From the NCBI GenBank assembly GCA_902779865.1, contig CACZDG010000007.1, positions 8,958-72,957 of the forward strand: DNA of 64,000 nucleotides, given 5' to 3'. This DNA comes from an uncultured bacterium (GTDB taxonomy: Bacteria > Verrucomicrobiota > Kiritimatiellia > RFP12 > UBA1067). The notes beneath the pieces were generated by a model that worked only from the letters and a program-made list of their open reading frames with translations, ran no database searches and had not been told where the DNA came from. Position numbers and translations under genes: made by a program. Each line of letters opens with the position of its first letter. Position 1 is the first letter of the stretch. Of this stretch, positions 46,399 to 61,331 are shown in pieces.

Positions 46399-46802
46399 TA
46401 GTTGGCTACACAACAGGCGTGTTCGACATGTTCCACGTAGGGCATCTCAATCTGCTTGCGCGGGCGCGTGAGCAATGCGACCGGCTTATCGTGGGCGTTT
46501 CAACGGACGAGGTGGTGCTCGGCTACAAGAAGCACGCGCCCATCGTCCCCTACGCGGAAAGGGTTGCTATCGTGAAGGCGATACGTTACGTAGATGAAGT
46601 CGTGCCGCAGACGTCGATGGATAAATTCGCCGCGTGGGAAAAACTGCACTTCAACCGCCTCTTCCACGGTAATGACTGGAAGGGGAGCGCGATGTACAAT
46701 GAAGTCGAGGCGAAGTTGAAGTCCGTCGGCGTGGAGGTAGTCTATTTCCCCTACACGCAGGGCACGAGCTCCACGCTTCTCGCCGAGCGTTTGAGGGGCT
46801 AG
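46395..46802 (+). CDS. Second TagD-family cytidylyltransferase paralog
   Basis: IVGYTTGVFDMFHVGHLNLLARA, IRYVDEVVPQ, FHGNDW, VVYFPYTQGTSSTLL. GTGA overlap start, with GGGGAGG Shine-Dalgarno. Confidence 0.85.
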   Translation: MIVGYTTGVFDMFHVGHLNLLARAREQCDRLIVGVSTDEVVLGYKKHAPIVPYAERVAIVKAIRYVDEVVPQTSMDKFAAWEKLHFNRLFHGNDWKGSAMYNEVEAKLKSVGVEVVYFPYTQGTSSTLLAERLRG

Positions 46803-46844
46803 ATGGTGGTGCGCCTGAGGGCAATGTTCTGTGGCGGAGAAGGG

Positions 46845-46868
46845 AAAAATCTGCGATGATTTTTTTTT
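46845..46868 (+). terminator. Weak AT-rich hairpin plus T-run after the glycopolymer operon
   Basis: AAAAATC-TGCGAT-GATTTTT followed by TTTT. The stem is AT-only, so it is marginal. Confidence 0.35.
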
Positions 46869-46878
46869 CATTTTCCCC

Positions 46879-46907
46879 TTGCATCTGGAAACGCGATATG
46901 ATACAAT
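46879..46907 (+). promoter_or_regulatory. Sigma70-like promoter TTGCAT-N17-TACAAT for the low-GC block
   Basis: TTGCAT at 46879-46884 and TACAAT at 46902-46907 with 17-nt spacing. Confidence 0.45.
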
Positions 46908-46914
46908 ATTTGCG

Positions 46915-47205
46915 CTTTCGAGGAACTAGGCGGGTTTCGGACATTGTGTCCGGGCCTAGGAATAACCGGGCTCAATGAAAGTTGACCCGCAAGACGTTTC
47001 AAGGAAGTGAGTGGTGAGGAGCGCGAAACTCAAATCGTTCCAATCTGCTGAATGGCATAACATGTGTGCCGACCGTGTTCACGCGGGTGCAATAAAGTGA
47101 AGCGGTACGATACCACCGGAAAGAACGGATCAACCGGGTAGCTCCGGTCGGAAGGGTGCGGAAGTCCGCGCCTAGAAGAGAAAAGCCAAAGGAAAAAGAA
47201 CAACA
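46915..47205 (+). promoter_or_regulatory. About 290-nt untranslated leader, candidate structured RNA
   Basis: No ORF. Hairpin CTAGGCGGGTTTCGGACATTGTGTCCGGGCCTAG at 46925-46959. The motif GTCCG(G/C)GCCTAG recurs at 47164-47175, allowing alternative pairing with the CTAGGCGGG arm. Confidence 0.35.
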
Positions 47206-47997
47206 ATGAAGAAACTCATTATTGGTGCTGCTGTTGCAACCATCGCTGCTGGTGCGTTCGCGGCGGCATGCAGTGAAGTTAAGGATTGTGCGGCTTGGGA
47301 TGTGAAGTTCAATCTCAAGACGCTCACCCCCAAGAAGACCAATTGCGGTAAGGATGCATGTGGTGAATCGCTCGGTTCGGTTTACTACCTTGATTCTGTT
47401 TCTCGCAAGATTGAAGGTTACATGTGGGCATGTGAGTATGATTGCGCGGAGAGCGATGAGTACTACATCACACTGTGGGATAAGAAGAACAAGAAGGCTG
47501 TTGTCGCTTATAGCGCAGAAGAAACTCAGACTGTTCCTGTCCCTGCCGATGATCTCCTCGTTTATGGCAAGAAGGCAACCAAGGTCGCTGGCACGTTCGT
47601 GTTCGAGGGGCTGATGGATGATGTCGGCGATGAGGCGTTCAACATTACGGCCGCAGGTATCAACGGCAAGTTCCAGAAGGGTGATAAGTGCTACATCAAG
47701 TCGCTGTCTGGCTATGCTGCTGGTAAGGTGAAGCTCTATGTGCCTACTGCCAAGACACCGAAGGGTTCGAAGGGTACTCTCTGCGAGGATCCTGAGCCTG
47801 TTGATCCTTGCGAGGATGTCCTTCTTCGTGCGGCGACCTTCTGCGATGCGTGCTGCTGGGAGACGTGGTGTGATGACACTTACGACTACGGTGAGACGCT
47901 TGTTCCGGCCGCTGGAACTTGGTCTATGAAGTACAACAAGAAGGTGTCCAAGGGGACGAAGTCGATGTCCCAGTTGATTCCTAGCTATGCTCTCTAA
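47206..47997 (+). CDS. Secreted cysteine-rich protein, family A copy 1 (paralog of 56720-57502)
   Basis: Signal peptide MKKLIIGAAVATIAAGAFAAA. 13 Cys by my count. Shares with copy 2 the blocks KIEGYMWACEYDC/KIKGVFWGCDC, CWETWC/CECAEGG, AAGTWSMKYNKK/ASGTWKLKYNAA and IPSYAL/FPSYVK. Confidence 0.7.
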   Translation: MKKLIIGAAVATIAAGAFAAACSEVKDCAAWDVKFNLKTLTPKKTNCGKDACGESLGSVYYLDSVSRKIEGYMWACEYDCAESDEYYITLWDKKNKKAVVAYSAEETQTVPVPADDLLVYGKKATKVAGTFVFEGLMDDVGDEAFNITAAGINGKFQKGDKCYIKSLSGYAAGKVKLYVPTAKTPKGSKGTLCEDPEPVDPCEDVLLRAATFCDACCWETWCDDTYDYGETLVPAAGTWSMKYNKKVSKGTKSMSQLIPSYAL

Positions 47998-48084
47998 TGA
48001 GGGTGTAAGGTTGTAACTTACAAAGTGGGGGGAGGTGGCAAAGGCTACTTCCCCCCATAATTGTAATACCTACAAGATACGCAC

Positions 48085-49131
48085 ATGTTAAAGTTACTCA
48101 CGACAGGTATTGTTGTATTTTTGATGTTGTTTGGTAGCGTGGGAATGGCTGCGCCAGTGCTTGAGCGTTTTATTCCTGTGAAGCCATCTTCTGGTATTGT
48201 TCTAGTACGTGTAAATGGGGTTGATATCACTCGAGCACAGTTGGACAGAAAACTTGACATGATGGTGGCCCTCTTGAAGAATAAAAAGAAAACTATGACT
48301 TCAGACGAAGTGGCAAAATTTAAGAAGAAGAATCTAATACCATTGAGTAACGCTCTCCTCTACCAGAAAATACTTGAAACTAATCTTGCCAGTTCAAATA
48401 TAATATCAAACGCGGCAGCGGAGAGAGAGGTGAAAAATGAGTTTCTTAGAAAATTTGGTAAACGAAAGCAATCATGGCAGGATTTGGTTGCGTATGTAAA
48501 GGGAACTGGGTTTGATAAGGATTTCAATGATAGATTTGCATTTGAGATTCGCCTTCGCAGTTTCTTTATGACAGTACATTCGAATCAGTATTATGTGACT
48601 CAGTCGGACATTGAAAAAGTAAAGGCAGATGTGTCAGCTTATAATAAGCGAGCAGCAGCGACAAATAAGGTAACACTTGCCTATGCCCAAAATATCTTGA
48701 AGAAGGCAAGATCTGGTGAAGATTTTGCAAAGTTGGCCAATCATTATTCACAAGACAAGGATCAGAATGATGGGGGAAGTTTGGGTGATTGCGATGAATC
48801 TGATTTTCTCGGAGGCGATCAGTATGTTTGGAAGATTTTAAATTCATTGAAAGTTGGGGATGTCAGTGATATCTTGCAGACGGAAGAAGGATATGTGATT
48901 TATAAGGTCGTTCGGCGTAACACGGCAGAGCAATCTCAAACTGGAAGCGCATCTTTGACATTGTCTAGAATCTTTTTTCGATGTGCATATTTATTTCCCG
49001 AGCAGACGGATGAAGAGTTAAGGGATGATGTTGAAAGAGAGAAGCGAGAAAAGTTGGCAATTGATGTTTACAAGGCGTTTCGCGCCCAAAGCAAGGTTTC
49101 TTATCCAAATGGCCCAGTAAGGGTAAAATGA
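48085..49131 (+). CDS. PpiC/parvulin-type peptidyl-prolyl isomerase (SurA/PrsA-like foldase)
   Basis: Signal or anchor MLKLLTTGIVVFLMLFGSVGMA. Parvulin block FAKLANHYSQDKDQNDGGSLGD...LKVGDVSDILQTEEGYVIYKV. The most AT-rich gene in the window. Confidence 0.8.
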   Translation: MLKLLTTGIVVFLMLFGSVGMAAPVLERFIPVKPSSGIVLVRVNGVDITRAQLDRKLDMMVALLKNKKKTMTSDEVAKFKKKNLIPLSNALLYQKILETNLASSNIISNAAAEREVKNEFLRKFGKRKQSWQDLVAYVKGTGFDKDFNDRFAFEIRLRSFFMTVHSNQYYVTQSDIEKVKADVSAYNKRAAATNKVTLAYAQNILKKARSGEDFAKLANHYSQDKDQNDGGSLGDCDESDFLGGDQYVWKILNSLKVGDVSDILQTEEGYVIYKVVRRNTAEQSQTGSASLTLSRIFFRCAYLFPEQTDEELRDDVEREKREKLAIDVYKAFRAQSKVSYPNGPVRVK

Positions 49132-49144
49132 AAGGTAAAGCTAA

Positions 49145-50395
49145 ATGAAACTGAAAACGGTAATCCTGACAATTGCATGTGCGGCTAGTAGTGTCGTATC
49201 TGCAGCATCCCTTAACGACGTTCAGTCGAATGTTGTACCTGGTGAATGGACAAGCAGTTATTCTGTAGCAAAGAAATATGCAGAAGACAATGGTGTGCCA
49301 ATGCTTGTTTTTTGGTCCAGCCCTGGATGTGCAAAATGCAGTAAAATGAAGGTTGCATGTAATACTGCTGAGTTTGTCACTTGGCGAAAAGCGAGAAAGT
49401 TAATCATGGTGTTTTCAGAGGGGGATTCGACCGTAAAGGCTTTTGCTAGAAATTCATCAGGGGATTATCCATATATGCGTCTTTATTGGCCTAAAGGTGG
49501 CGTTGATCTAAAGTTTACAGGTCGCTCAACCTCAATAAGAGCTTCGGGAAATACTTTACAGGCTCAACTCATGAACTACGTTGATGCAAATGTCAAGGCA
49601 TGGATTAGTGGTGGCGGTGATGCTGGTGGGGGCACAGAGGTGACACCAACTCCCACGCCCACCCCCACGCCCACTCCAGCAGATCTTTCTGCGTGGAAAA
49701 AAGCCCGTTTCCTCTACGGTTCATACTATACTAGCAATGGTGCGTTCGCTGGGCGCGTGGTGCTTACGGCTGGAAAGATTAATGCAAGGGGGGCCTCTAG
49801 AATCAAGGCTACGGTGATGGGATTCGATGGCCGGTCTAGGACATTTGGTCAGAAGTCTTTCACGGTGACTGGTACGACGACTGGTACACTGTCGAGTTCC
49901 GTAGGGACGTATGCATTCTCCATCAACGGTTCGTCGATTTCTGGCACTTTGACACGTGACGGCGTGGCATATTATGTAAAACCCGTGAAGACTGGGGGGA
50001 CATTGTCTGATGGGGCGTTCACCTTTAAACTCATCGATTATCCTGAGAAATGTGAAGGGTATCCGCTTATTCATGGTGCAAGTTATCTACCGATTTCGCA
50101 GTCCTTCACGTCCCGTTCGTCAAAGTGGTCTTTCGCGAGGCGGGGGGCGTTGCGTTACGTTACAAAAAGCGGCGACTTTGTCATGTCCGCTACGGATAAT
50201 CCTTCTGGCCTCAAGTTGTCATATAGAAGCACAAACGGCTATTTCAAGGGTACGTTCACGGTCTATGCCGCGCGTAATGGGAAGTATGTCAAGCGTTATT
50301 CAGCAAAGGTATCTGGTTTTATGGTTGGCAATTCCGGTGAGGGTGTTGTGACCATCAACAAAGTGGGTACGTTCAGCTGTACGATCACGCGCTGA
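49145..50395 (+). CDS. Secreted thioredoxin-fold (CxxC = CAKC) protein with TP-repeat linker and shared C-terminal module
   Basis: Signal peptide, VVPGEWTSSY, PMLVFWSSPGCAKCSKM, linker TPTPTPTPTPTP. C-terminus DNPSGLKLSYRSTNGYFKGTFTVYAARNGKYVKRYSAKVSGFMVGNSGEGVVTINKVG. Confidence 0.7.
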   Translation: MKLKTVILTIACAASSVVSAASLNDVQSNVVPGEWTSSYSVAKKYAEDNGVPMLVFWSSPGCAKCSKMKVACNTAEFVTWRKARKLIMVFSEGDSTVKAFARNSSGDYPYMRLYWPKGGVDLKFTGRSTSIRASGNTLQAQLMNYVDANVKAWISGGGDAGGGTEVTPTPTPTPTPTPADLSAWKKARFLYGSYYTSNGAFAGRVVLTAGKINARGASRIKATVMGFDGRSRTFGQKSFTVTGTTTGTLSSSVGTYAFSINGSSISGTLTRDGVAYYVKPVKTGGTLSDGAFTFKLIDYPEKCEGYPLIHGASYLPISQSFTSRSSKWSFARRGALRYVTKSGDFVMSATDNPSGLKLSYRSTNGYFKGTFTVYAARNGKYVKRYSAKVSGFMVGNSGEGVVTINKVGTFSCTITR

Positions 50396-50402
50396 CAAAT
50401 AA

Positions 50403-52115
50403 ATGGACAGAAGGTTTATAATTCTGTCGCTTTTGGCCGGTTTGGTGCTATGCACCATCGGCCAGGAGTCGTCTTTTGTGCCCGTCAATGGGCAGATGTA
50501 TCGCATGCGGCAGCCTGACGGTGTTGTGCGCATGTTTTTGCGCGACAATGACGAGCCGAATCTCCTTCACGGCGAAGGAGGTTGGACCGCCGAGCTTGAC
50601 GGGCGAAAGACTTTGGTAATGAACGATGCCGATCAGGATAAGGATCGGCGCGGCTTTTTGTTCTTGAATGGTTATTTGCGGAAGCAATTGGTTGGCGACC
50701 GCGAGATTGACGTTCGAGTTCCGCCTCCTGGTAGCGATGCTAAAGCACTTGCAGAACTTTGGCCAGTAAAGGAGGCACGTTTGGTCGCGGCGGAAGCGCC
50801 GGACATTTGGAGCGGCGGTCCGCGCATTCGGCTGTGGTTTGACAATCCGAACAAGGCCGGCTTCCTTTTTGCGGAGATTGCGCTTGCGGCTCTTGCTCTG
50901 CTCTTTTGCAGGCCGGTTTGGCTGCGGATTGTCGGCGCGGCCGTATCGCTTGCGTCGTTTATCGGATTGGTGCAGACGTCTTCCCGAGGGGCGCTGCTTG
51001 CGTTCCTGTGCGGTGTCGCAGCAATTGGCGCAGTGCGCTTCAAAAGTGTGTTCACAGCTAAAAGGTTGCTTGTTGTCGCCGCTGTGATTGGCGTGGCCAT
51101 TGGATGTCTGTTCGCCTCTGGGCAGTTCGAGCGTCTGGGCAAGAATCTTTTCAATGAGGGGCAACGCGAAACGAGCCGCCTGACGGTGTGGAAGGAGGTT
51201 CCGCGTATGATGGTGGATGCTCCGGATGGATGGGGATTCGGACAATCGGCAAGAGCATACATCGATTGGTATCAACCACAGAGCGTATGCCTGCTGAAGA
51301 ATTTGATCAGCGACCATCTCACCTTTCTCGTGGAAGCTGGTTGGCCGTTGCGCTTTGCATACGTATTTCTTTGGCTAGCAATAGGTAGTGTGCTGGCATG
51401 GTTGTCCGTGCAAGGTGCATCGCCAGTCCCGATGGCCATTATTGCGGCATTTGCGGTTGCGGGCTGCTTCAATCCCGTTGTTTTTGTTCCAGAACTATGG
51501 GTGATTCCGGTAACGGCCGTTGTGTGTTTGGCAATATTTCGTTTTCATGACTGGTTTGCCAGGAAAACGCTTGTGCCAGTAGCCATTGCAGCTCTGCTCA
51601 CGATGCTTGCCGCCGTTGGCGTTTACATTTGGGGATCGGCGGTATCTCCGAAAGTGTCCGTTCACAAGACGGGTGGAGCCGTTTGCTTAAATGGCGAGAA
51701 TCCGTCAATCTGGGTTGTTGACGACGACTATGTGTTGCATGGTGGCTATTGGTGGTTGGCTGGCCGCGAACTGCGTGATTCGCTTGAATCGCTGAAGACT
51801 TCTTCTTCGCTTGGGTACGTTCGCTCCGTGGCCGATTTGCCTAAGGATACAGACGTGATTGTGCTGCTTGGTGAGGCTGGCCGTGATTTCCTTGAACTGC
51901 AAAGCCGACCGGGTGCGAAGAAGGTTGTGTTCGTTTCGCCTCCATTTCCATGGCAGACCGTTCCTCTGTCGTTGTTGTCCACAAGCGAGGTATCGTTTGT
52001 GCTTGGTGGGGTAGCGGCGCGGCGTATTGCGGGAGAGGCATCGCCTCCTTCGTGGGTGACGATTGTGCCAGGCTCTGAACTTTATGTTCCCAACTGGCTC
52101 AAATTTGTGCTATAA
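50403..52115 (+). CDS. O-antigen ligase / Wzy_C-family membrane protein with extra N- and C-terminal domains
   Basis: LVQTSSRGALLAFLCGVAAIG, R..VWKEVPRMMVDAPDGWGFGQ and SDHLTFLVEAGWPLRF fit the O-antigen-ligase loop and His motif. About 150-aa N-terminal and about 170-aa C-terminal non-membrane extensions. Confidence 0.65.
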   Translation: MDRRFIILSLLAGLVLCTIGQESSFVPVNGQMYRMRQPDGVVRMFLRDNDEPNLLHGEGGWTAELDGRKTLVMNDADQDKDRRGFLFLNGYLRKQLVGDREIDVRVPPPGSDAKALAELWPVKEARLVAAEAPDIWSGGPRIRLWFDNPNKAGFLFAEIALAALALLFCRPVWLRIVGAAVSLASFIGLVQTSSRGALLAFLCGVAAIGAVRFKSVFTAKRLLVVAAVIGVAIGCLFASGQFERLGKNLFNEGQRETSRLTVWKEVPRMMVDAPDGWGFGQSARAYIDWYQPQSVCLLKNLISDHLTFLVEAGWPLRFAYVFLWLAIGSVLAWLSVQGASPVPMAIIAAFAVAGCFNPVVFVPELWVIPVTAVVCLAIFRFHDWFARKTLVPVAIAALLTMLAAVGVYIWGSAVSPKVSVHKTGGAVCLNGENPSIWVVDDDYVLHGGYWWLAGRELRDSLESLKTSSSLGYVRSVADLPKDTDVIVLLGEAGRDFLELQSRPGAKKVVFVSPPFPWQTVPLSLLSTSEVSFVLGGVAARRIAGEASPPSWVTIVPGSELYVPNWLKFVL

Positions 52116-52116
52116 T
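52108..52116 (+). promoter_or_regulatory. Extended -10 box TGCTATAAT overlapping the Wzy_C stop codon, followed by a 5' stem-loop at 52126-52144
   Basis: Exact TGnTATAAT. CACGCCC-ATGTC-GGGCGTG hairpin begins about 10 nt downstream. AAAGGAAA Shine-Dalgarno before the ATG at 52167. Confidence 0.45.
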
Positions 52117-52166
52117 ATTAGTCGACACGCCCATGTCGGGCGTGACAAAAGAAAGGAAATGAGTAA

Positions 52167-52655
52167 ATGAAAATTAGAAAATTCGTTGTGTGGGCGATGG
52201 TTGTTATGCTGCCGATCGCCGTTTTCTCGAAATCCTCGCTTAAGACTTTGGTGCTTGGCGATGATATCGTGTTGGAGCCTGAAAGTTCCTTGACGTTTAC
52301 TTTGGCTGGAGACTTGGAAGACCTTGCATTCCCCTACGAGTTGCTTCCATTCTCGCCCGACGGCGTTGATGTGGAATGGACCGGCAAGAAGTTCAAGACG
52401 CCCAAGGCAGGAAAGGTTAAGTACATCAAGAGCGACGAGGACTTCGGCGACTCGAAGGATTCGGACAATCCGTGTGGGCTGAAGATCAGCATCAACAAAA
52501 AGACTGGTAAGGTGAGCGGCTCATTCAAGGTCTATACGGCAAAGACTGAAAAGAAGCTTAAAACTTACACTGCCAAGGTTTCAGGGTATGTTGGGAGTGA
52601 GTCGCTTACGGTAACGATCAAGAAGATCGGGACGGTTGCGGCTTCGCTAGAATAG
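52167..52655 (+). CDS. Small secreted protein consisting essentially of the shared C-terminal module
   Basis: Signal peptide MKIRKFVVWAMVVMLPIAVFS. The block PDGVDVEWTGKKFKTPKAGKVKYIK...DNPCGLKISINKKTGKVSGSFKVYTAKTEKKLKTYTAKVSGYV...IKKIG aligns with the C-termini of 49145, 54426 and 57517. Confidence 0.7.
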   Translation: MKIRKFVVWAMVVMLPIAVFSKSSLKTLVLGDDIVLEPESSLTFTLAGDLEDLAFPYELLPFSPDGVDVEWTGKKFKTPKAGKVKYIKSDEDFGDSKDSDNPCGLKISINKKTGKVSGSFKVYTAKTEKKLKTYTAKVSGYVGSESLTVTIKKIGTVAASLE

Positions 52656-52683
52656 TTTTGTTCCAACGTTCAAGGATTGACAA

Positions 52684-53805
52684 ATGCGGTGGAGTTGTCA
52701 TCTTTTTGCGATTGTTTTTCTGACGGCGCTATCGTCGGCTGCTTTCAGTATTCCAATCTCATGCGGGGAAGTTGTTCCGGGTGAGTGGAATGCTGATTTT
52801 TCAGCCGTTCTTGAAAGGTCCAATCGTGAGCATTTGCCAATGCTGCTTGTTCGCGCCAGCGAGGGGTGTCCTCTTTGCGCGCGATTGAATCAAGCGTTGG
52901 ACGGGGAGGCCTTTTCGCAATGGCAGAAAGACCGCAAGTTGTTGATGGCGTATATCCGCACAAGTGGCCAGAATGCAGTCTCTAAGCGGGTGCAGAACTT
53001 CATCAAGTCCGTTTCGGGGGAGTTGCCAGAATTCCCGTATGTATGCGTTTACTGGCCCAAAGCCGATGGTACGACGAATAGTGTAGCTTTTGCCGGACGT
53101 CGCGGCGAGATGGGAACTGAACGCAAGGATTTGCTCTCCGTTGAGTTCATGACGGCCGTTGATAGAACTATTCAGGATTATTTGGCGCAGGATTCGCAGC
53201 ATGCAACGATTGAACAAATCCTCGCGAAAAGCGTAAAGAAAATTGCCTGCGCAAAAGCGGGGGCAGCGGGTTCCGTGGTCATGCGTCCCGAATCTGGAGT
53301 CTTGAATGAAGGAGGGAAAGTGATCCTTGAGGCACGGGCGGCTTCGGATGCGCTTTTTGTTGGATGGGAAGACCCTCAGGGGCGTTTTGTCGAATGGAAC
53401 TATCGTCTGGTCGTATCGGGGCGCATGCCTGCCGGCACTTATACTGCGCGTTTCCGTCCAAAGGAGGGATGCCCCCCACCGGCATTGACAACAGTGACGA
53501 CTTCCTTGTGTGTGCAAGTTGGTCGGAGGTTTAATTTATCGGTACCAGTCGATCCGACCAGTCGTCCGGTTCATTTCCGTGCTGCCCAGCGCTTGCCTAG
53601 GGGGGTGAAGCTTGACAAGGTTACTGGTGAACTTACCGGCTTGTTTCATAAAGAAGGTATTGTGCGTATTACAATTCTGGTTGTGGGATCGGACAAAGCA
53701 AACACTACAAAGTCCTATTCTGTCAACTTGACGATAGCCCCGAAGAGACGGCAATCCGTTTCAACTGCTATTGTGGACGAAAAAGCGGTGATGAGTTCGG
53801 AATGA
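52684..53805 (+). CDS. Secreted thioredoxin-fold (CxxC = CPLC) protein with Ig-like repeat domains
   Basis: VVPGEWNADF, PMLLVRASEGCPLCARL, YVCVYWPKADG parallel 49145. C-terminal GWEDPQGRFVEW (bacterial repeat-like) and RLPRGVKLDKVTGELTG (putative Ig domain). Confidence 0.65.
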   Translation: MRWSCHLFAIVFLTALSSAAFSIPISCGEVVPGEWNADFSAVLERSNREHLPMLLVRASEGCPLCARLNQALDGEAFSQWQKDRKLLMAYIRTSGQNAVSKRVQNFIKSVSGELPEFPYVCVYWPKADGTTNSVAFAGRRGEMGTERKDLLSVEFMTAVDRTIQDYLAQDSQHATIEQILAKSVKKIACAKAGAAGSVVMRPESGVLNEGGKVILEARAASDALFVGWEDPQGRFVEWNYRLVVSGRMPAGTYTARFRPKEGCPPPALTTVTTSLCVQVGRRFNLSVPVDPTSRPVHFRAAQRLPRGVKLDKVTGELTGLFHKEGIVRITILVVGSDKANTTKSYSVNLTIAPKRRQSVSTAIVDEKAVMSSE

Positions 53806-53815
53806 ATACACGCCA

Positions 53816-53965
53816 ATGAAGCGAGTGTTTCAATATTTTAACTGGTGGGTCGTGATGGGTACCATCGCCATTGCGGTGGTTTTGGGCATTCTCAATAATA
53901 TCCGTGTGTATGAGGAACAACGGGTGAATTGGTTTGGTGGCCCAGTTGTGGAATCAGAGGAATGA
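53816..53965 (+). CDS. 49-aa single-pass membrane protein (below the ORF-track cutoff)
   Basis: My translation is MKRVFQYFNWWVVMGTIAIAVVLGILNNIRVYEEQRVNWFGGPVVESEE. Its stop overlaps the MauE-like start region (TGATATG). Confidence 0.4.
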   Translation: MKRVFQYFNWWVVMGTIAIAVVLGILNNIRVYEEQRVNWFGGPVVESEE

Positions 53966-53966
53966 T

Positions 53967-54401
53967 ATGTGGTCGGCGGTACTAGTTTGGCTAGAGCGGC
54001 TGTGCCGCGTTGGATTAGGTAGCATGTTTGTCTATTCAGCCTGGGATAAAATCGCGGATCCAGGGCTGTTTGCCACGGTTGTGATGCGATACGAACTGCT
54101 GCCCGAAGTTGCGGTAGGGATGTTTTCGCTGACGCTGCCAATGCTAGAGATGTTAGTGGGGCTTTTGTTTTTATGCACGAAATGGTTGCGAGAGGCGGCA
54201 TTGTTGGCAACTGGCATGTTGTTGATGTTCTTGGGCGCATTGACGATTGCCATCGCACGCGGGCTGGAGATCGATTGCGGATGTTTCGGTATTTCGGGGG
54301 GAGGCAGGGCGGAATTGGTTCAAGCGGTAATACGCGACTTGGTGTTGTTGATGCCAACGGTGTGGTTGATTTTTCGACGTGAAAATTGGTTGTGGAAATA
54401 A
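53967..54401 (+). CDS. MauE/DoxX-family redox-associated membrane protein
   Basis: Four TM segments and the characteristic IDCGCFG motif. SAWDKIADPGLFATVVMRYELLP is typical of MauE-like proteins. Confidence 0.7.
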   Translation: MWSAVLVWLERLCRVGLGSMFVYSAWDKIADPGLFATVVMRYELLPEVAVGMFSLTLPMLEMLVGLLFLCTKWLREAALLATGMLLMFLGALTIAIARGLEIDCGCFGISGGGRAELVQAVIRDLVLLMPTVWLIFRRENWLWK

Positions 54402-54425
54402 TAAAGAAAGAAGAAGTAAAGTCAA

Positions 54426-56642
54426 ATGATATGTGTTTCTAAAAAGGTTTTCGCGGCGTTGGCAATTTGCCAGCTGTTTGCAGTCAACGAGTATGCCATG
54501 GCATACGGCATTGCGGAAGTGAAAGACGTGCGCGTCGCACCGCTTGTTTCCTCCAAATGGTCGGTTGGAGATTTCGGCGGGGCAAATGCGTTCAATTTTT
54601 ATACTCCAAAGAACTATTCTTGCGGGTGTGGAATTACGGCGTATGCACAGATTATGCGTTTTTGGCGTGCGCCAAATGCGGTAGCCGCGAAGAAATTTCA
54701 GTGCTGGCTTGATGGAGTCCCGGGAAGTTATTCGACTAGAGGGGGCGCATACGCTTGGGACGAAATGCCTTTCACGGGCGAAGAGTGCGTCAATGACGCC
54801 CAACGCGAGGCGCTTGGACATCTTGCTTTTGATCTAGGAGTGGCTTCGCATGTGTCATGGGCCAATATAAAGTATTCATATAGTTATGGAGTCCTTTCGG
54901 TAGCCGCATTGCAAGATTATTTCGGGTATGCGTCGGCTCGCACTCTTATGCGTGGAGCCTCTAATGGAAACATTTTCAAGGATGAAGACTATCGGAATGC
55001 TTTGCTTGCGAGCCTTGACGCCGGTATGCCTGCGGTAATCGGAGTTAGGACCGTTGACAACCAAGGGCATCAAGTAGTCGTTGACGGGTATGGGTTTGAC
55101 GATGCAGGCAAACTATTATGCCACTTGAATTTTGGGTGGAATGGAGCCGCTGACAATTGGTACAATCTTATGGAGAATGCTTTTGCCGCAGGTGACGGCA
55201 TTGATGAGTTTGTATTCGCCCACATTGACGAAATAGCCTACAACATTCATCCAAGCAAGAAGGGAGAGGTTATTTCGGGACGTGTTTTGGATAAGGCTGG
55301 GAATCCTGTCAAAAACATTTCAGTTAGATTTGGACTGGCTGGGAAGGCCTCGTCGGTTGAGGAGACGCTTACGGATGAGAATGGCATCTACAGTTTCCGT
55401 TTTACAGGGAAGGGCAAGTATGTTGTCTCGGTGGCTGATGAGAATCTAGGGCAGGCGGAACGAACGATTACTATTTCAAAGGATGGAGCAAGTGTGGCCT
55501 TGGTTCCGTCGTTGGACTTCTCCGTCCCGTTCACCAGTTTCAAACTTTACGCAAACGCCATTGGTACCGTAGGTAACCGATGGGGAGAGGATCTGGTGCT
55601 TAAGGAAGGCTCGTCTGCACCCATTCCCCCGCCTACAACCGGTCCCATTTTCAGCGCCGCTGCCACAATTGATGGTTACCTGACGGATGCTGGCGGAAAA
55701 ATGGCTGGAACCATTCAGGTGAAGGCGGGAAAGGCCGACAAGGCCGGTCAAAGCAAGATGACGGCTAACGTCATGATAAATGGACAGGCAAAGAAATGGT
55801 CATTCAAGGGCGTTATGGCGGCAGATGGTTCGGCAAGCCTCTCTTGTGCGGGGCAACCGGCTCTGAATCTTGCGTTTGATGAAAAGGGAATGAGCGGTAA
55901 GCTTGGAGGGCGTGATGTCGTAGGCGTGCGGAATTTGTTCGCATCGAAAGTCAAGACAGAAGTCAATGAGGCCAATGCAGCACTGAAAACGTTGTTGGGT
56001 ACGTTGAACGTAGCATCGGATGGTACGTTCCTGACTGTGACGATTGCGGCCAAGGGCAAGGTCAAGGTGACCGGAATGATTGGCGAGAAGAAGGTTTCGA
56101 CAACAAGCCAGCTTCTGCTTGGTGAGACCCAGCACGTCATACCTGTGTTGGTGACGAAACCTACTATGTTGGCGTTCCTTGTCAACATGGCACCGAACGG
56201 GAGCGTGATCAGCGTAGAGGGGTTGAAAACATGCAAGGCTGGCAAGGTTGTTGGTTTGCGTTCAAACGCCAAGTTCCATGTGGATACTTCGGCGGAACTT
56301 TGGAAATCGTTGCAGGGGAACGTTATTACGGGGGTGTTGCCTGATGGCCAGCCTGTGCCCGTGTCTGGCAGTAAGTGGATTCTTGACAAAGCGGGGAAGG
56401 TGGTGTACAAAAAAGGCACGACTGATTTGGATGATACGAAGTTCGGCAAGAACCCTTCTGCGTTGAAACTGACCTACAAGGCGAAAGACGGGACATTCAA
56501 GGGGGCGTTCAAGGTATATTGTGAGGTGAAGGGTAGGCTAAAAGCAACGACCGTTAATGTGACGGGTGTGTTGATTGGCGACAGGGGTTATGGTTCGGCT
56601 TCCATCAAAAAAGTTGGGAGTGTGCCGATAACGGTTGAATAG
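54426..56642 (+). CDS. Peptidase C10 (streptopain/SpeB-like cysteine protease) with carboxypeptidase-regulatory-like domain and shared C-terminal module
   Basis: Catalytic Cys context YSCGCGITAYAQIMRFW. His context GHQVVVDGYGFD. HLNFGWNGAADNWYNL matches the SpeB NWGWGG block. ISGRVLDKAGNPV...TDENGIYSF. C-terminus NPSALKLTYKAKDGTFKGAFKVYCEVKGRLKATTVNVTGVLIGDRGYGSASIKKVG. Confidence 0.82.
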   Translation: MICVSKKVFAALAICQLFAVNEYAMAYGIAEVKDVRVAPLVSSKWSVGDFGGANAFNFYTPKNYSCGCGITAYAQIMRFWRAPNAVAAKKFQCWLDGVPGSYSTRGGAYAWDEMPFTGEECVNDAQREALGHLAFDLGVASHVSWANIKYSYSYGVLSVAALQDYFGYASARTLMRGASNGNIFKDEDYRNALLASLDAGMPAVIGVRTVDNQGHQVVVDGYGFDDAGKLLCHLNFGWNGAADNWYNLMENAFAAGDGIDEFVFAHIDEIAYNIHPSKKGEVISGRVLDKAGNPVKNISVRFGLAGKASSVEETLTDENGIYSFRFTGKGKYVVSVADENLGQAERTITISKDGASVALVPSLDFSVPFTSFKLYANAIGTVGNRWGEDLVLKEGSSAPIPPPTTGPIFSAAATIDGYLTDAGGKMAGTIQVKAGKADKAGQSKMTANVMINGQAKKWSFKGVMAADGSASLSCAGQPALNLAFDEKGMSGKLGGRDVVGVRNLFASKVKTEVNEANAALKTLLGTLNVASDGTFLTVTIAAKGKVKVTGMIGEKKVSTTSQLLLGETQHVIPVLVTKPTMLAFLVNMAPNGSVISVEGLKTCKAGKVVGLRSNAKFHVDTSAELWKSLQGNVITGVLPDGQPVPVSGSKWILDKAGKVVYKKGTTDLDDTKFGKNPSALKLTYKAKDGTFKGAFKVYCEVKGRLKATTVNVTGVLIGDRGYGSASIKKVGSVPITVE

Positions 56643-56660
56643 TAAAAAGTGCTTTGGCCG

Positions 56661-56683
56661 CACTTGACTTTGCAAGTGTTTTT
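56661..56683 (+). terminator. Short hairpin plus T5 after the C10 protease gene
   Basis: CACTTG-ACTTTG-CAAGTG followed by TTTTT. The stem is only 6 bp. Confidence 0.4.
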
Positions 56684-56686
56684 AGG

Positions 56687-56692
56687 TACAAT
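56687..56692 (+). promoter_or_regulatory. -10 box TACAAT upstream of cysteine-rich protein copy 2
   Basis: TACAAT 27 nt upstream of the ATG at 56720. AAAGGAG Shine-Dalgarno. Confidence 0.4.
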
Positions 56693-56719
56693 ACGCGCCA
56701 AGCCTAAAAAGGAGAAATC

Positions 56720-57502
56720 ATGAAAACGATAACAGTGTTTGCAGTTGCAGTTCTTTCGACATTTGCCGTCTTTGCTGACGCGCAGGTGTATGAGATGACG
56801 ATTACTCTTAAGTCCACAACTGCCGCATCTGGTAAAATCACGCCAATAGTGTGCGATACGCCGAAGCCGGAAGTCAATTTGTACCGCAAGCAGTCCACCG
56901 TAAAGATAAAAGGGGTGTTTTGGGGATGTGATTGCGAGACGATTGCCGAACCGCAGTTTGTAACGTCTGCGGAGGCTACCTATGGTTATGTCTTCTGGAA
57001 TGAAACGACTCACAAGGTTCTTGATGTTGAATTTGGCTGGCATATACTCAACCGCATTGACAAGAAGCTGAAGAAAGCAGAAGGCGCATGGATGATCGGC
57101 AGTTTGGATTCAGATGTTTTTCTTACGGGGGCTGGTTTCGGAACGGTCAAGGATGATGTCGCCAAGGCGTCGTGTACGATCAATTCCGTTATTCTAACAC
57201 CCATGAGCGGTTCCTGCGCTGGTTGGTTGTCGCTTCCTTCTGTCACAGTCAAGGGAACGGCTGAAGATTGCCCTAAATGTGGCGAGGTTACGCCTGGTAC
57301 CGATGATGTTGAGACTGTTGCACCGGCTTGGTCGTTATGCGAATGCGCCGAAGGTGGCGAATACACTGCTGCATCAGGCACATGGAAACTCAAGTACAAT
57401 GCAGCGGCCTCAAAGAAGTGGAAGAATGCTGATGCATCTCTTTCAATAACGAAGGCATATTCATTCCCGTCATACGTTAAGACGTTTATAGAATCGTTGT
57501 AA
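56720..57502 (+). CDS. Secreted cysteine-rich protein, family A copy 2
   Basis: Signal peptide MKTITVFAVAVLSTFAVFADA. Paralogous blocks shared with 47206-47997 (see that entry). Confidence 0.7.
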   Translation: MKTITVFAVAVLSTFAVFADAQVYEMTITLKSTTAASGKITPIVCDTPKPEVNLYRKQSTVKIKGVFWGCDCETIAEPQFVTSAEATYGYVFWNETTHKVLDVEFGWHILNRIDKKLKKAEGAWMIGSLDSDVFLTGAGFGTVKDDVAKASCTINSVILTPMSGSCAGWLSLPSVTVKGTAEDCPKCGEVTPGTDDVETVAPAWSLCECAEGGEYTAASGTWKLKYNAAASKKWKNADASLSITKAYSFPSYVKTFIESL

Positions 57503-57516
57503 ATGGAGCATTGCAA

Positions 57517-59328
57517 ATGAGAATCGCTTTCAGGGCATCGATCATGGCTGCGGGCGCGCTTGTCGCGTCCGTAGTCTGGGGGTTTGAATACAACGTGCGT
57601 CAACCGTCGGACTACCTTAAGCCGACGTGGCATTCGAAGGATACGGCCCCTGGTGTCTGGACTCTCAATGTTGATGATGCCTTGGCTCGTGCCAAGGCCG
57701 CTGGCAAGTGTACGATTCTCATGATGACGGCTTCGTGGTGGTGTCCATATTGCGAGACGTTTGAGGACATGGTTCTTTCGTCGAAAGCATGGAAGAACTA
57801 TGTGGCGGAGAAAGGGTTCTACCTCGCGATGCTGGATTTCCCGTATCGCAATGACGTGCCCGCAGGTCAGGAGTGGAAGAGTTGGCGCCCCGATCTTGGA
57901 AAGGGATGGGGCTTCAAGTGTTGGCTTATGAATCAGACTTATCTTGCGGAGATTGGCCTTACGCAAGAGGAAGGTCTGGACGCAATCATGGATCTGTACA
58001 AGCGTCAAGGTGAGCTTGCCACGGAGTCTGCACAACTGATAACGATGAAAAACTGGAGGCAGACGAAAGAGTTTACATACGGCAAGGTCGGTTATCTATC
58101 CTTGATCGTAATTGGACCAGATGGGAAAGAACGTGGGCGCATGTCGTTCCCGTGGTACAAAACAGAGTCTGTGACTGTTTCAGAGGCGCAAGAGTACGTC
58201 TTTCAATCGCTTGAGCAAATCATGGCTGGCACGTGTGAGATTTGCACCGATCCTGCTGCAGGCGTCCCAGTTACTGACAAGGCACAGGAGTACGACGGCT
58301 GGTTGGCCGATGGTTCAGGCGCGATTGCAGGCTTCGTACAGTTCAAGACATCGCGACGCATGGCTTCTGGCGCGGTTAAGGTCAGTGGTAGCGTTACAAT
58401 CTCAGGTAAGAAGACTACCTTCAAGCCAGTAGTTGCGTTCAATTTGAACCAGCCGATCGTTCTTGTGAATAAGGGTAAATCTGTAAACGTTTCGTTTGGC
58501 GAACTCGGTCTAAGTGGAGACGTGATGGTGGATGGCGTCCGATACACGATTGGAGGAGGAGGACGGAACGTGTTCAAAGCTAAGGATACTGCGGCTATGA
58601 GACGTCGGGTCTCAGCGCCGTCAGGCAATTGGAGTGTTGTCCTTAAACCTTCCGACAAGGATGCTCCGAATCGATACGCGCGCGGGTATGGCTCATTGAC
58701 GGTGCAGTTGCGCAGCAACGGTATTGGGAAAATTATTGGTTTTCTTGGCGATGGTACAAAGGTGAGCGTCAAATGCCAGGCAATTGTCGGCGACGATGGC
58801 GTATCTTGCTTGCCTGTATGTGCAAACCTTTACGGGAAAAGGGGTGGTCTGGGTTTCGTGTTATGGTTCAAGAACGGTCGTTTGCTCACGGCAACGGCTA
58901 TCAGGCCTTGGAAGGCCGTTGGTCGCTATGCGTCTTTTATAGCAAACTACGTCCCGAATTTCACTATGTCATCAGGTATTGGCGAGCCGTTGAACGAGAT
59001 GGATCTGACGATTGAGGACTTTGACGAAACGGCGCTTCTACGTGCGCTTCCGCTCGCTTGGTCTCCTTCTGAAGACATTGTAGAGGTCAAGGGAACAAAA
59101 TGGATTGGCACAAAGGCGTCTTACTTTTCGGCGAGGTGTACGGTGAGTTCGGGCCTGTTGAAGGGCAATATGACATTTTCGACGGTTCGTCCGAACGGGG
59201 CGATTAAAAAGGTTAAAGGGACTTTTACCGGTGTAATAATGGGGGGATCTGGATATGGTACGGTTTTTGTGGCAGGAGAGGGGACTTGGGCCGTCAAAAT
59301 CGCCGTTTGTGGAAGTTGCAGCGAGTAA
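57517..59328 (+). CDS. Secreted thioredoxin-fold (CxxC = CPYC) protein with beta-rich middle region and shared C-terminal module
   Basis: APGVWTLNV, CTILMMTASWWCPYCETFE. The middle YDGWLADGSGAIAGFVQFKTSRR parallels YGSYYTSNGAFAGRVVLTAGK (49145) and IDGYLTDAGGKMAGTIQVKAGK (54426). C-terminus SSGLLKGNMTFSTV...KVKGTFTGVIMGGSGYGTVFV. Confidence 0.7.
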   Translation: MRIAFRASIMAAGALVASVVWGFEYNVRQPSDYLKPTWHSKDTAPGVWTLNVDDALARAKAAGKCTILMMTASWWCPYCETFEDMVLSSKAWKNYVAEKGFYLAMLDFPYRNDVPAGQEWKSWRPDLGKGWGFKCWLMNQTYLAEIGLTQEEGLDAIMDLYKRQGELATESAQLITMKNWRQTKEFTYGKVGYLSLIVIGPDGKERGRMSFPWYKTESVTVSEAQEYVFQSLEQIMAGTCEICTDPAAGVPVTDKAQEYDGWLADGSGAIAGFVQFKTSRRMASGAVKVSGSVTISGKKTTFKPVVAFNLNQPIVLVNKGKSVNVSFGELGLSGDVMVDGVRYTIGGGGRNVFKAKDTAAMRRRVSAPSGNWSVVLKPSDKDAPNRYARGYGSLTVQLRSNGIGKIIGFLGDGTKVSVKCQAIVGDDGVSCLPVCANLYGKRGGLGFVLWFKNGRLLTATAIRPWKAVGRYASFIANYVPNFTMSSGIGEPLNEMDLTIEDFDETALLRALPLAWSPSEDIVEVKGTKWIGTKASYFSARCTVSSGLLKGNMTFSTVRPNGAIKKVKGTFTGVIMGGSGYGTVFVAGEGTWAVKIAVCGSCSE

Positions 59329-59343
59329 TTGGGGATTATTGCC

Positions 59344-60525
59344 ATGAAGAAGTATGCAGTTTTTATATTGATTTCGCTGGTTGCGATTGTGGCTGTGGTG
59401 TGGTTTGTGGCGCTGCCGCGTGGCGCGGAAGAGACGCCGCAAACAGAACATGTCGATGGCATAAAGAGTGGACGGCGTTTAGTCCGCCGCACTGGGCGGA
59501 ATCCGACCAATGTGCGTGAAAAAGTGCGAGGTATCGTTTCAACCGAACCCAAGAATGGGCGCCGTCGTCCACGACCAGACGCGGAGATGTTTGAACATCT
59601 GCGCGGGGTGGATCGTCGGCTTGCCGAGAGTATTCAGAAAGCGCTGGATGACGACAATTATAGTGGCGTTATGGAATCCGTTGATGCCGCCATGCGTTCG
59701 AAGAATGCCGAAGTACGCTCGCACCTAGTCGATGCCTTGGGTTGGTTTGGGGTCGAGGCGTTGCCCGAGCTCACGGTGCTGATGGCTGATCCGGATGATG
59801 AAGTGGCCGAATCGGCGCAAGCGCAGTGGACAGTTGCCCTGGCCGAAATTGAGAATCCAGGCAAACGCATGCAGATCGGTTTATCGGTGCTTGGGACGTT
59901 TTCTAATAAGGACATGTTGGATGGTATTATCGGAGAGGTTTCTAACGCCGCCGTTGAATACATTGAGGAAGAACCGGACGATTCAGATGAAGCGGAGAAT
60001 GCAGAGCGTCAAAGTACTAGGCGCATAGAGGTGGTTCAGGCTCTTCTTGATATTATGAGTGGCGATCTGCCAGTATGCGCTAAAGCCGCTGCCGAGGCAT
60101 ACGAAGATATTACGGGACACGAATGGATCAGCATTGACGAGGCAGAGCTTTACTTGCAGAACCCTGATGACTATGAACTGCCCGAAGATCGTGACGATGA
60201 CGATAATAAACGGATTCAGCCGCCAGTTGAGCCGCCAGTCGAACAGCCCGCTGAGCAGCCTGTTGAACAGCCAGTAGAGCAACTCGGCGAGCAGCCAGTA
60301 GTGCAGCCCGTTGAGCAACCCGTTGAACAACCAGGTGAGCAGCCTGTTGAACAGCCCGTAGAGCAGCCCGTTGAACAGCCTGGTGAACAACCAGTGGTGC
60401 AGCCAGTAGAGCAACCTGTTGAACAGCCAGGCGACCAGCAACAGCCTGTTGATACGCCGGAGCAAGACGACGATGACGATGGTGTTGTTATAGGACCAGA
60501 TGGCAAACGTATTGGTAATAGGTAA
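59344..60525 (+). CDS. Membrane-anchored HEAT-like repeat protein with acidic (E/V)QP(V/G) tandem-repeat tail
   Basis: N-terminal TM helix. LVDALGWFGVEALPELTVLMADPDDEVAESAQAQW is HEAT-like. The tail holds about 18 copies of a 4-aa EQPV/EQPG unit. Confidence 0.65.
   Translation: MKKYAVFILISLVAIVAVVWFVALPRGAEETPQTEHVDGIKSGRRLVRRTGRNPTNVREKVRGIVSTEPKNGRRRPRPDAEMFEHLRGVDRRLAESIQKALDDDNYSGVMESVDAAMRSKNAEVRSHLVDALGWFGVEALPELTVLMADPDDEVAESAQAQWTVALAEIENPGKRMQIGLSVLGTFSNKDMLDGIIGEVSNAAVEYIEEEPDDSDEAENAERQSTRRIEVVQALLDIMSGDLPVCAKAAAEAYEDITGHEWISIDEAELYLQNPDDYELPEDRDDDDNKRIQPPVEPPVEQPAEQPVEQPVEQLGEQPVVQPVEQPVEQPGEQPVEQPVEQPVEQPGEQPVVQPVEQPVEQPGDQQQPVDTPEQDDDDDGVVIGPDGKRIGNR
60216..60446 (+). repeat. 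12-nt periodic coding tandem repeat (GAGCAGCCNGTN)n
   Basis: Reads QPPVEPPVEQPAEQPVEQPVEQLGEQPVVQPVEQPVEQPGEQPVEQPVEQPVEQPGEQPVVQPVEQPVEQPG. There is a higher-order repeat of about 60 nt. Confidence 0.85.
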
Positions 60526-61331
60526 TGAAGAAAACGGTCATTTCTTGCCTCGTAGGCCTACTTTGCGTGTCGGCGATTGTTATTGTCGTGTTGCGGCACG
60601 ATGGCGCGTCAAGTAAGGCAGATATTGATCCTGGTGACCGCGATGAAGTTTCTTCGCGCAACCCAGGCAAGAAATTTTCAGTGACTCCGGCTTCATCGCA
60701 GCGTAAGCGCCATAAAGTGGCTAATCCGTCAAAACCGGTTTTGGATTTAGGTGTTGATGATGACGATGATGAGGAAGACAGGCGGACGCCAGCCGAGAAG
60801 GCGCTTGCAGAACGCATAGAGAAGGCTCTTGACGAAGAAGATCTTGAAATGGCGGTGTCATGCGCAGACGAGGCCCTGTCATGCGCGGTCACCGAGATTC
60901 GTCAGGCGATGGTTGAAACACTTGGCTGGTTTGGCGAGAAAGCGCTACCTGAACTCACGCCATTTCTTGCGGATGCCGATGAAGACGTTCGCGACAGCGC
61001 GATGAACGAATGGACAACGGCATTGTCATCCATTGAGGATGAAAAAGCAAAAATCGGGGTTGTGGAACTTGCGATGGGCGTCCTTAAGGATGAGGATGCA
61101 TTGGAGTCGATTTCGAGCGAATATATCGGCGTGGACGAGAAACTGGCCGTTGAGTCGCTGTCTAGGATCATTACGGACGGGAAGTCGGCTGCTGGCGTCG
61201 AAAAGGCCAAGGAGACTTACGAGTTTGTAACTGGCGACGAATGGGCGGGTGTTGATGAGGCCGCACGCTGGATTGCCGAAGAATACGAACCGCCAAACCA
61301 AGCTGATGCTTCTGGTGGCAATCAACGGTGA
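60525..61331 (+). CDS. Membrane-anchored HEAT-like repeat protein (tandem paralog of 59344-60525)
   Basis: MVETLGWFGEKALPELTPFLADADEDVRDSAMNEW and TYEFVTGDEWAGVDEAARW align with the upstream paralog. TAATG overlap. Confidence 0.65.
   Translation: MKKTVISCLVGLLCVSAIVIVVLRHDGASSKADIDPGDRDEVSSRNPGKKFSVTPASSQRKRHKVANPSKPVLDLGVDDDDDEEDRRTPAEKALAERIEKALDEEDLEMAVSCADEALSCAVTEIRQAMVETLGWFGEKALPELTPFLADADEDVRDSAMNEWTTALSSIEDEKAKIGVVELAMGVLKDEDALESISSEYIGVDEKLAVESLSRIITDGKSAAGVEKAKETYEFVTGDEWAGVDEAARWIAEEYEPPNQADASGGNQR

Follow-up and report, generated by a model that had tools for sequence, protein, structure and literature searches.

We analyzed a 64,000-nucleotide stretch of DNA (assembly GCA_902779865.1, contig CACZDG010000007.1, positions 8,958 to 72,957; hereafter the window) from an uncultured rumen bacterium of the class Kiritimatiellia, in which genes for three exported proteins with thioredoxin-fold domains (trxA, trxB and trxC) lie around a gene for a MauE-family membrane protein and a 49-aa reading frame, tm49. 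The sequencing runs containing this stretch are bovine gut metagenomes. Our analysis showed that trxB, tm49 and MauE (52684-54401) form one transcription unit, and a functional tie of MauE to trxB-type proteins is well supported. We propose that the trxB-tm49-MauE unit is probably an accessory quinone-linked disulfide-forming machine, which would act in the manner of DsbB-DsbA and the VKOR-thioredoxin fusions. The remaining two proteins, trxA and trxC, belong to a second, separable secreted-protein cassette, and their dependence on MauE is unproven. The original prediction, made from the letters of the window, had placed all three thioredoxin proteins in one relay; this held for trxB and was not borne out for trxA and trxC, the cassette of which occurs in relatives without a nearby MauE. 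The genes at the center of this analysis are the following.

trxA: 49145..50395, + strand, exported protein of 416 aa with a thioredoxin-fold head; Thioredoxin_7 24.9 bits
trxB: 52684..53805, + strand, exported protein of 373 aa; predicted direct redox partner of MauE
tm49: 53816..53965, + strand, 49-aa single-pass membrane protein
MauE-family membrane protein: 53967..54401, + strand, 144 aa counted from the ATG; PF07291 89.9 bits
trxC: 57511..59328, + strand, exported protein of 605 aa; probable start is the ATG at 57517

MauE, tm49 and their tie to trxB

The MauE-family protein, first recognized by its IDCGCFG motif, was confirmed by its match to PF07291 (89.9 bits, cut-off 27; residues 19-147 aligned to positions 3-127 of the 128-position profile), and it is the single PF07291 copy in the genome. 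The CGC of this motif (nt 54276-54284), followed by FG, was invariant in an alignment of eight MauE sequences, and a Lys in transmembrane helix (TM) 1 (AWDKIADP) and a Glu in TM2 (LPMLEML) were conserved in all eight. Hydropathy, charge distribution and the positive-inside rule give the protein four TM helices, with the CGC in the loop between TM3 and TM4. This loop was placed in the periplasm, since positive charges mark the loop that follows TM4 and since the fusions described below add one helix before an exported thioredoxin domain, a MauE-TM5-thioredoxin layout that demands a cytoplasmic C-terminus. Two extra Cys of the window MauE were considered as a cytoplasm-facing pair and were ruled out, being unconserved among the eight sequences. 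The MauE start is the ATG at 53967, behind AGAGGA and two bases past the tm49 stop, which is also the called start in relatives; the earlier claim that the tm49 stop overlaps the MauE start is an artefact of an alternative TTG start at 53934, from which alone the overlap arises.

Comparison with other genomes of the genus linked MauE to one kind of thioredoxin protein. In eight congeners (G020, G022, G006, G004, G002, G008, G018 and G011) MauE lies within open frames of 439-609 aa. In the seven frames that were read, MauE continues through a positively charged loop and a fifth TM helix into an acidic linker, which leads to a trxB-type domain. The CxxC of these fused domains is CGYC, CKYC, CHYC, CRFC or CEYC. 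In the window's own clade and in G019, G013, G017 and G009, MauE is directly preceded by a separate gene of the trxB type. Every one of the strongest hits of the domain profile (E < 1e-50) was either fused to MauE or encoded next to it. In four rumen or gut metatranscriptomes, the trxB-tm49-MauE junctions are bridged by RNA contigs, one of them 181 nt long with zero mismatches. It is on the fusions and the conserved adjacency that we base the tie between MauE and the trxB type, and only trxB-type domains track MauE. The trxA/trxC cassette is separable from it. If only gene proximity in the window and a weak match of MauE to DoxX were considered, MauE could be a DoxX- or transporter-like protein of unrelated function that merely lies among secreted-protein genes, but this is contradicted by the in-frame MauE-trxB-type fusions recurring in at least seven genomes, by the gene order kept in other genomes and by the invariant CGC, and we regard it as very improbable.

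Divergent second MauE copies with N-terminal extensions of 170-260 aa were observed in two related genomes (L026 8755-9969, contig C228 of G020; L025 3424-4365, from G024). The extension in G020 has a likeness to a DUF1573-type beta-sandwich by eye only, and neither tm49 nor a thioredoxin partner lies near either copy.

The 49-aa single-TM frame noted before MauE proved to be a real gene and is the third component of the trxB-tm49-MauE unit. In about 15 loci, from two genera and several metagenome contigs, it immediately precedes MauE and is sometimes translationally coupled to it; the tm49-MauE order was found in the window clade, in G019, G002, G008, G018, G004, G006, G017 and G021, in G090 from another genus of the family, and in contigs L059 and L061. 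In G013, G020 and G022, the tm49 segment constitutes the N-terminal membrane anchor of a trxB-like protein. Three layouts are thus present: a signal-peptide thioredoxin protein with separate tm49 and MauE, a tm49-thioredoxin fusion with MauE, and tm49 with a MauE-TM-thioredoxin fusion. A profile search of 1.84 billion representative proteins assembled a tm49 family of 92 clusters, nearly all of 40-100 aa and a few fused to trxB-like proteins, while Pfam and NCBIfam gave no match. No tm49 was seen beside the MauE genes of other phyla or of the other orders of the class.

The tm49 protein is single-pass with its N-terminus inside, contains no Cys, and carries a periplasmic motif conserved just outside the membrane, LGILNNIRVYEEQRVNWFGG, with the consensus LG(I/V)LNNxRVxEEQRVxWFG (core LNNxRVxEEQRVxWFG). 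The most likely role of tm49 would be to dock the thioredoxin partner at MauE or to hold it there. A more far-reaching idea, which we consider rather unlikely, is that tm49 is indispensable as the third subunit of a MauE oxidase specific to this lineage, with the tm49 motif docking the thioredoxin domain or completing the quinone/CXC site, and that the layouts are permutations of one three-part machine dedicated to folding fast-evolving Cys-rich surface proteins in rumen Kiritimatiellae. If so, the tm49 subunit could offset the single Cys pair of MauE, compared with two in DsbB and VKOR. The only new element of the unit is tm49; the rest is of a kind already known from a 2026 preprint considered below, which was not checked for a small accompanying protein.

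Thioredoxin-fold domains of trxA, trxB and trxC

All three exported proteins have the N-terminal thioredoxin-fold domain that was originally predicted, although its length is about 135-170 aa rather than about 100 aa. The fold was modelled for trxB only; for trxA it is taken from 28.6% identity to trxB across 140 aa (tblastn E = 3e-14), and for trxC from sequence and structure matches covering its N-terminal half only. The trxB protein consists of a signal peptide, the thioredoxin-fold domain (aa 25-171, nt 52756-53196) and two immunoglobulin (Ig)-like domains (aa 185-352), with the active site CPLC at aa 62-65 (nt 52867-52878) and a cis-Pro at 118; C62, C65, P118 and W124 were invariant across 28 orthologues. 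The AlphaFold2 model of the domain, built from 29 sequences, had a predicted local distance difference test (pLDDT) of 83 and a predicted template-modelling score of 0.82 (pLDDT of whole trxB, 84), and displays the classic order of thioredoxin elements, with the CxxC opening helix 2 and Pro118 ahead of strand 4. The best Foldseek matches of this domain in the PDB were 2lst, 2ju5, 3fk8 and 6dnl (E = 6e-6 to 2e-4; query-normalised template-modelling scores of about 0.5-0.57), that is, a Thermus thioredoxin, DsbH, a Xylella disulfide isomerase and the C-terminal domain of DsbD. When the whole trxB model was used, cadherin and Ig matches to the two C-terminal domains dominated.

In trxA, a signal peptide is followed by the thioredoxin-fold domain (aa 24-156, nt 49214-49612; profile E = 1.4e-42) and, after a (TP)6 linker, by a C-terminal module of some 105 aa (E = 3.5e-46) that is shared with other proteins of the genome. 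Its CxxC is CAKC (aa 62-65, nt 49328-49339), and trxA orthologues have CAHC, CSEC or CSQC. The domain of trxC, of the Thioredoxin_7/DsbH-like kind (about aa 44-215, nt 57640-58155), gave no match to trxA or trxB by BLAST and was recovered with a profile of the trxA/trxB-type domain (E = 2e-7 to 4e-7). It contains an invariant WWCPYC (aa 76-81; CxxC at nt 57742-57753) and an insertion of about 75 aa ahead of the strand that normally bears the cis-Pro, and the protein ends with the shared C-terminal module and CGSCSE. The 86 trxC homologues carry the NCBI name 'thioredoxin family protein [Kiritimatiellae bacterium]'.

Family models placed these domains near Thioredoxin_7 and DsbH. Against Pfam Thioredoxin_7 (PF13899), trxA scored 24.9 and trxC 26.7 bits, both slightly below the cut-off of 27, and trxB had no match; many trxB and trxC orthologues carry precomputed PF13899 matches. 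The NCBIfam DsbH model (NF043050) gave 34.8 bits for trxC and 12.8 bits for trxA, a resemblance only given the equivalog cut-off of 190. The sequence of trxC matched the Chlamydia DsbH structure, PDB 2ju5 (E = 2.8e-5), while a PDB sequence search with trxA returned nothing useful. None of the three matched MauD (TIGR02661) or Redoxin models of Pfam and NCBIfam at E <= 0.1, none had a Pfam match to a DsbA-type fold (PF01323, PF13462), and the trxB model lacks the helical insert. The proteins are therefore not MauD, DsbA or true DsbH, and are domains of the Thioredoxin_7/DsbH/DsbD-gamma type; of the MauD/MauE-style relay first suggested, the tie between MauE and a thioredoxin protein survives for trxB, through fusions and adjacency, and the MauD identity does not.

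Conservation of the CxxC in orthologues was upheld: its two Cys, like the Trp of PG(E/V)W, showed no variation in alignments of 11 window and congener sequences, 28 trxB orthologues and 36 trxC orthologues. A later aromatic landmark, YxxxYWPK, is present in trxA and trxB, whereas the segment FYLAMLDFPY that had been assigned to it in trxC is strand beta-3; the trxC counterpart, GYLSLIVIGPDG, was located by pattern after the insertion of about 75 aa. The cis-Pro is invariant in trxA, trxB and the MauE-fused domains. At the corresponding position of the window trxC (aa 191-212, window 58081-58146), placed by sequence pattern only, there is a Leu (GYLS, compared with GYPT in most orthologues), and Pro is found in 21 of 36 orthologues. 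Two giant exported proteins of more than 2,000 aa (C2:28047-35180 and C131:206-6490) contain an internal PGEW-type thioredoxin-like domain without a CxxC, and the PGEW-type family thus appears from its sequences to include non-catalytic members.

Direction of the relay and proposed mechanism

A check for canonical disulfide-forming proteins in the window's genome, which is 92% complete, found no DsbB (PF02600), VKOR (PF07884), DSBA (PF01323) or Thioredoxin_4 (PF13462). A DsbD-like protein of 428 aa (C69:5586-6872) with a C-terminal thioredoxin domain (WCKNC) appears to be the genome's only DsbD/CcdA-type reductant transporter; since it has its own thioredoxin domain, a reducing route is already provided. 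A MenA-like prenyltransferase is also encoded, and the UbiA family is present in all 41 genomes and so does not discriminate among them.

In one relative, represented by a metagenome contig (L059 16160-18093), tm49-MauE is translationally coupled to a polyprenyl synthase gene and adjoins MenA-like and MenG/UbiE genes and an ETF/ETF-QO set. As read from its sequence, this neighborhood would be a direct genomic link of MauE to quinone metabolism.

A March 2026 preprint reported that MauE replaces DsbB: two MauE proteins, from Caldithrix and Desulfatibacillum, rescue E. coli dsbB mutants via their CXC, and the features described for them are a CXC with Phe-Gly, a TM1 Lys and a TM2 Glu (bioRxiv 10.64898/2026.03.05.709764). 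The window MauE resembles these proteins, because CGCFG, the TM1 Lys and the TM2 Glu are in common. According to the same preprint, fusions to thioredoxin-superfamily domains make up 8.2% of MauE entries, and MauA is present in only ~10% of MauE-bearing species, the family being mostly unrelated to methylamine dehydrogenase (bioRxiv 10.64898/2026.03.05.709764). The lack of a methylamine dehydrogenase context in the window was thus observed correctly, but a special recruitment need not be invoked, as MauE without MauA is the rule in this family.

An oxidative, DsbB-like role is our best reading of the unit, because DsbA, DsbB and VKOR are missing, a reducing route is present, MauE has one periplasmic Cys pair, MauE is linked to quinone genes in the relative, and MauE proteins rescue dsbB in the preprint. 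As a four-helix membrane protein with a single CGC pair facing the periplasm, MauE would make disulfides de novo and pass the electrons to menaquinone. It would re-oxidise the CxxC in the thioredoxin-fold head of trxB, and trxB would then oxidise the cysteines of exported proteins. Likely clients would be two Cys-rich exported proteins (sec263 and sec260), the C10 protease and the thioredoxin-headed exoproteins of the surrounding low-GC cassette, of which trxA and trxC would be the CxxC oxidoreductases and may draw on MauE here. In this scheme we infer the oxidative electron flow, the quinone acceptor, the identity of the clients and the role of tm49.

Several observations weigh against this oxidative machine. 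Its partner domains belong to the Thioredoxin_7/DsbH/DsbD-gamma class, the studied members of which are mostly reductive. Fused orthologues often carry CGYC, which is the motif of the isomerase DsbC. The rumen is strongly reducing. The MenA-like matches in the window's genome and in the relative lie below curated cut-offs. Among 40 related genomes, MauE is patchily distributed: of the 24 that belong to the genus, 14 have it, and of the 16 from other families of the order, none. The fraction of proteins with an even number of Cys showed no excess among exported (0.489) over cytoplasmic proteins (0.459), a null result that is weak, as it depends on a crude open-reading-frame caller and signal-peptide rule (839 proteins called exported; the low-GC trxA and trxB dropped). 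Finally, in two relatives (L058 and L060) the cassette has no MauE within 22 kb, and the Cys-rich proteins of such MauE-less cassettes are equally Cys-rich.

In a relay of opposite direction, MauE and tm49 would maintain the reduced state of trxB and perhaps also of trxA and trxC, which could then repair, shuffle or reduce the disulfides and sulfenic acids of surface proteins, as in DsbD-DsbC/DsbG, Chlamydia DsbH or the mycobacterial DoxX-based thiol-homeostasis complex. The nearest structures and models of the thioredoxin domains (DsbH, the DsbD C-terminal domain and a disulfide isomerase), the CGYC and CPYC dipeptides matching DsbC and DsbG, the weak DoxX match of MauE, and an earlier proposal of MauE as a reductase (cited in bioRxiv 10.64898/2026.03.05.709764) would agree with it. 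However, the one conserved Cys pair of MauE is periplasmic, which leaves no evident DsbD-like uptake of cytoplasmic electrons, and a DsbD-type protein with its own thioredoxin domain is already in the genome. Complementation of dsbB by two MauE proteins is an oxidative function, and the linkage to quinone-biosynthesis genes in a relative points the same way. We consider a reductive or isomerising relay unlikely and retain the oxidative one.

The locus is a lineage-specific instance of the MauE pathway described in 2026. In common with the MauE of that preprint it has the PF07291 family, four TM helices, a periplasmic CXC with FG, the TM1 Lys and the TM2 Glu, a setting without MauA, a thioredoxin-superfamily partner and a host without DsbB and VKOR. 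It differs in that the partner is of the Thioredoxin_7/DsbH type with Ig-like domains, not DsbA or MauD, in the conserved 49-aa single-pass protein that is the constant companion of MauE in this lineage, and in the position of the module within a secreted-protein and polysaccharide cassette, its activity being predicted from sequence. Specific here are the conserved tm49 partner, the interchange of split and fused forms within one genus, and the position in that cassette.

Other known systems share parts of this arrangement. In mau clusters, the mauE-mauD pair is needed for disulfide formation in an exported client, and the pairing of a MauE-family membrane protein with a periplasmic CxxC thioredoxin-fold protein is alike; here, however, mauA and mauB are missing, the thioredoxin proteins are not MauD, and the clients differ. 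The VKOR-thioredoxin fusions, e.g., Synechococcus VKOR, join a four-helix, quinone-linked membrane oxidase, an extra TM helix and a periplasmic thioredoxin domain in the same way as the congener MauE-TM5-thioredoxin layout, and split and fused forms likewise coexist in the VKOR-thioredoxin and DsbB-DsbA systems. VKOR and DsbB nevertheless belong to unrelated membrane fold families (no PF07884 or PF02600 matches here), with two Cys pairs compared with the one CXC pair of MauE. Chlamydia DsbH (2ju5, NF043050), a soluble periplasmic reductase, and the DsbD C-terminal domain are the nearest sequence and structure matches of the thioredoxin domains, and have the Thioredoxin_7 layout in common with them, in which a Trp precedes the CxxC by about 28 residues and a DsbA-kind helical insert is lacking. 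In contrast to DsbH, for which the 34.8 bits of trxC lie far under the cut-off, these proteins have several domains each, and fusion to MauE is seen for one type.

Disulfide formation in anaerobes without DsbB or VKOR was an open gap that the 2026 MauE work begins to fill. The present locus adds independent genomic support from a different phylum, in the form of repeated fusion and fission of MauE and thioredoxin domains and the menaquinone-gene linkage in a relative, and it indicates that a domain of the Thioredoxin_7/DsbH type can serve as the partner of MauE. In addition, a small conserved membrane protein was recognized that always occurs together with MauE in this lineage, and the redox unit is now separated from a widespread, uncharacterised secreted-protein cassette of rumen Kiritimatiellae.

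The surrounding secreted-protein cassette

The unit lies in a low-GC block (47206-61331; GC 0.44-0.53, compared with about 0.60 in the flanks) in which every gene is on the + strand and which is embedded in a surface-polysaccharide locus, with LicD, cytidylyltransferase and GT1 genes on its left and Bac_transf and Glycos_transf_4 genes on its right. The gene order is sec263, PpiC rotamase, trxA, Wzy_C protein, sm162, trxB, tm49, MauE, Peptidase_C10 protein, sec260, trxC and two HEAT-repeat proteins. The cassette as such consists of a Cys-rich protein, PpiC, a thioredoxin-headed exoprotein, Wzy_C, trxC, HEAT proteins, a C10 protease and Bac_transf. Its further features in the window are given below.

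sec263: 47206..47997, + strand, Cys-rich exported protein, probably a lipoprotein; candidate client
PpiC-type peptidyl-prolyl isomerase: 48085..49131, + strand, SurA/PrsA-like foldase (PF00639 E = 1.7e-12); cassette member
Wzy_C membrane protein: 50403..52115, + strand, O-antigen-ligase-like (PF04932 42.8 bits); cassette member
sm162: 52167..52655, + strand, small exported protein of 162 aa consisting of the shared C-terminal module only (module E = 3.4e-44)
Peptidase_C10 cysteine protease: 54426..56642, + strand, with CarboxypepD_reg and the shared C-terminal module, 10 Cys (PF01640 111 bits)
sec260: 56720..57502, + strand, Cys-rich exported protein with 9 Cys; candidate client

Congeners also speak for a separation of trxA and trxC from the redox unit. 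Thioredoxin-domain profile matches were found in 24 of 24 of them, including 10 without MauE, often in giant proteins of 1,300-1,850 aa. It is an evenly balanced possibility that trxB-tm49-MauE is the only redox unit and that trxA and trxC are independent thioredoxin-headed exoproteins that work without MauE, as chaperone-like, binding or self-contained oxidoreductase modules; to the same even degree, the apparent triplication may reflect modular surface proteins rather than a shared relay. Besides the matches in MauE-less congeners, this would account for the cassettes that have trxA-like and trxC-like genes and no MauE within 22 kb, for the CxxC-less PGEW domains inside giant proteins of this genome, and for the Leu at the inferred cis-Pro of the window trxC, where only 21 of 36 orthologues have Pro. 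The strictly kept CxxC of trxC (WWCPYC) and of the trxA orthologues, on the other hand, argues for redox chemistry, which would need some oxidant or reductant. In addition, the triad sits inside the cassette in the window's clade, and the MauE-less contigs are fragments, so that MauE could be elsewhere in those genomes.

Of the candidate clients, sec263 has 13 Cys, 12 of them after a lipobox-like Cys22, and its cassette orthologues have 11-14 Cys; only a short C-terminal motif is common to sec260 and sec263. A search for sec260 in relatives gave matches in only 4 of 41 genomes, consistent with fast evolution, and the presence of Cys-rich clients could not be correlated with that of MauE.

At least 22 proteins encoded in the genome, among them trxA, trxC, sm162, C10 peptidases, thioredoxin-headed proteins and giant proteins longer than 2,000 aa, terminate in the shared C-terminal module (about 105 aa, ...LKLxY...GxFKGxFKVY...VxGV...). 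The module occurs in the window at 50080-50395, 52345-52655, 56325-56642 and 59100-59328, and on contigs C76, C4, C75, C131 and others. No match was found in Pfam or NCBIfam, and the module may be a sorting or anchoring domain.

(Thr-Pro)n linkers are present at window 49640-49680 (trxA aa 166-178) and within 59329-60525 (PT repeat, aa 338-372). They adjoin the Wzy_C protein, which is related to O-antigen ligases and PglL, and the Bac_transf initiating transferase. Protein O-glycosylation of cassette proteins is a possibility that these sequences raise.

In two relatives (L029 3010-4242 and L030 1994-3226), a tyrosine recombinase and an AAA-ATPase/PDDEXK_9 gene precede the block, replacing a CDP-alcohol operon. 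This upstream recombinase, together with the low GC and the atypical codon usage of the block, suggests that the block moves between genomes or occupies variable sites.

A non-coding leader before sec263 (window 47000-47240) was covered by RNA contigs at depths of about 117x and 157x in two sheep-gut metatranscriptomes, compared with 0-5x over the genes. An Rfam scan of the region 46700-47300 gave no match, and the segment could be an abundant 5' leader or a small RNA conserved among relatives.

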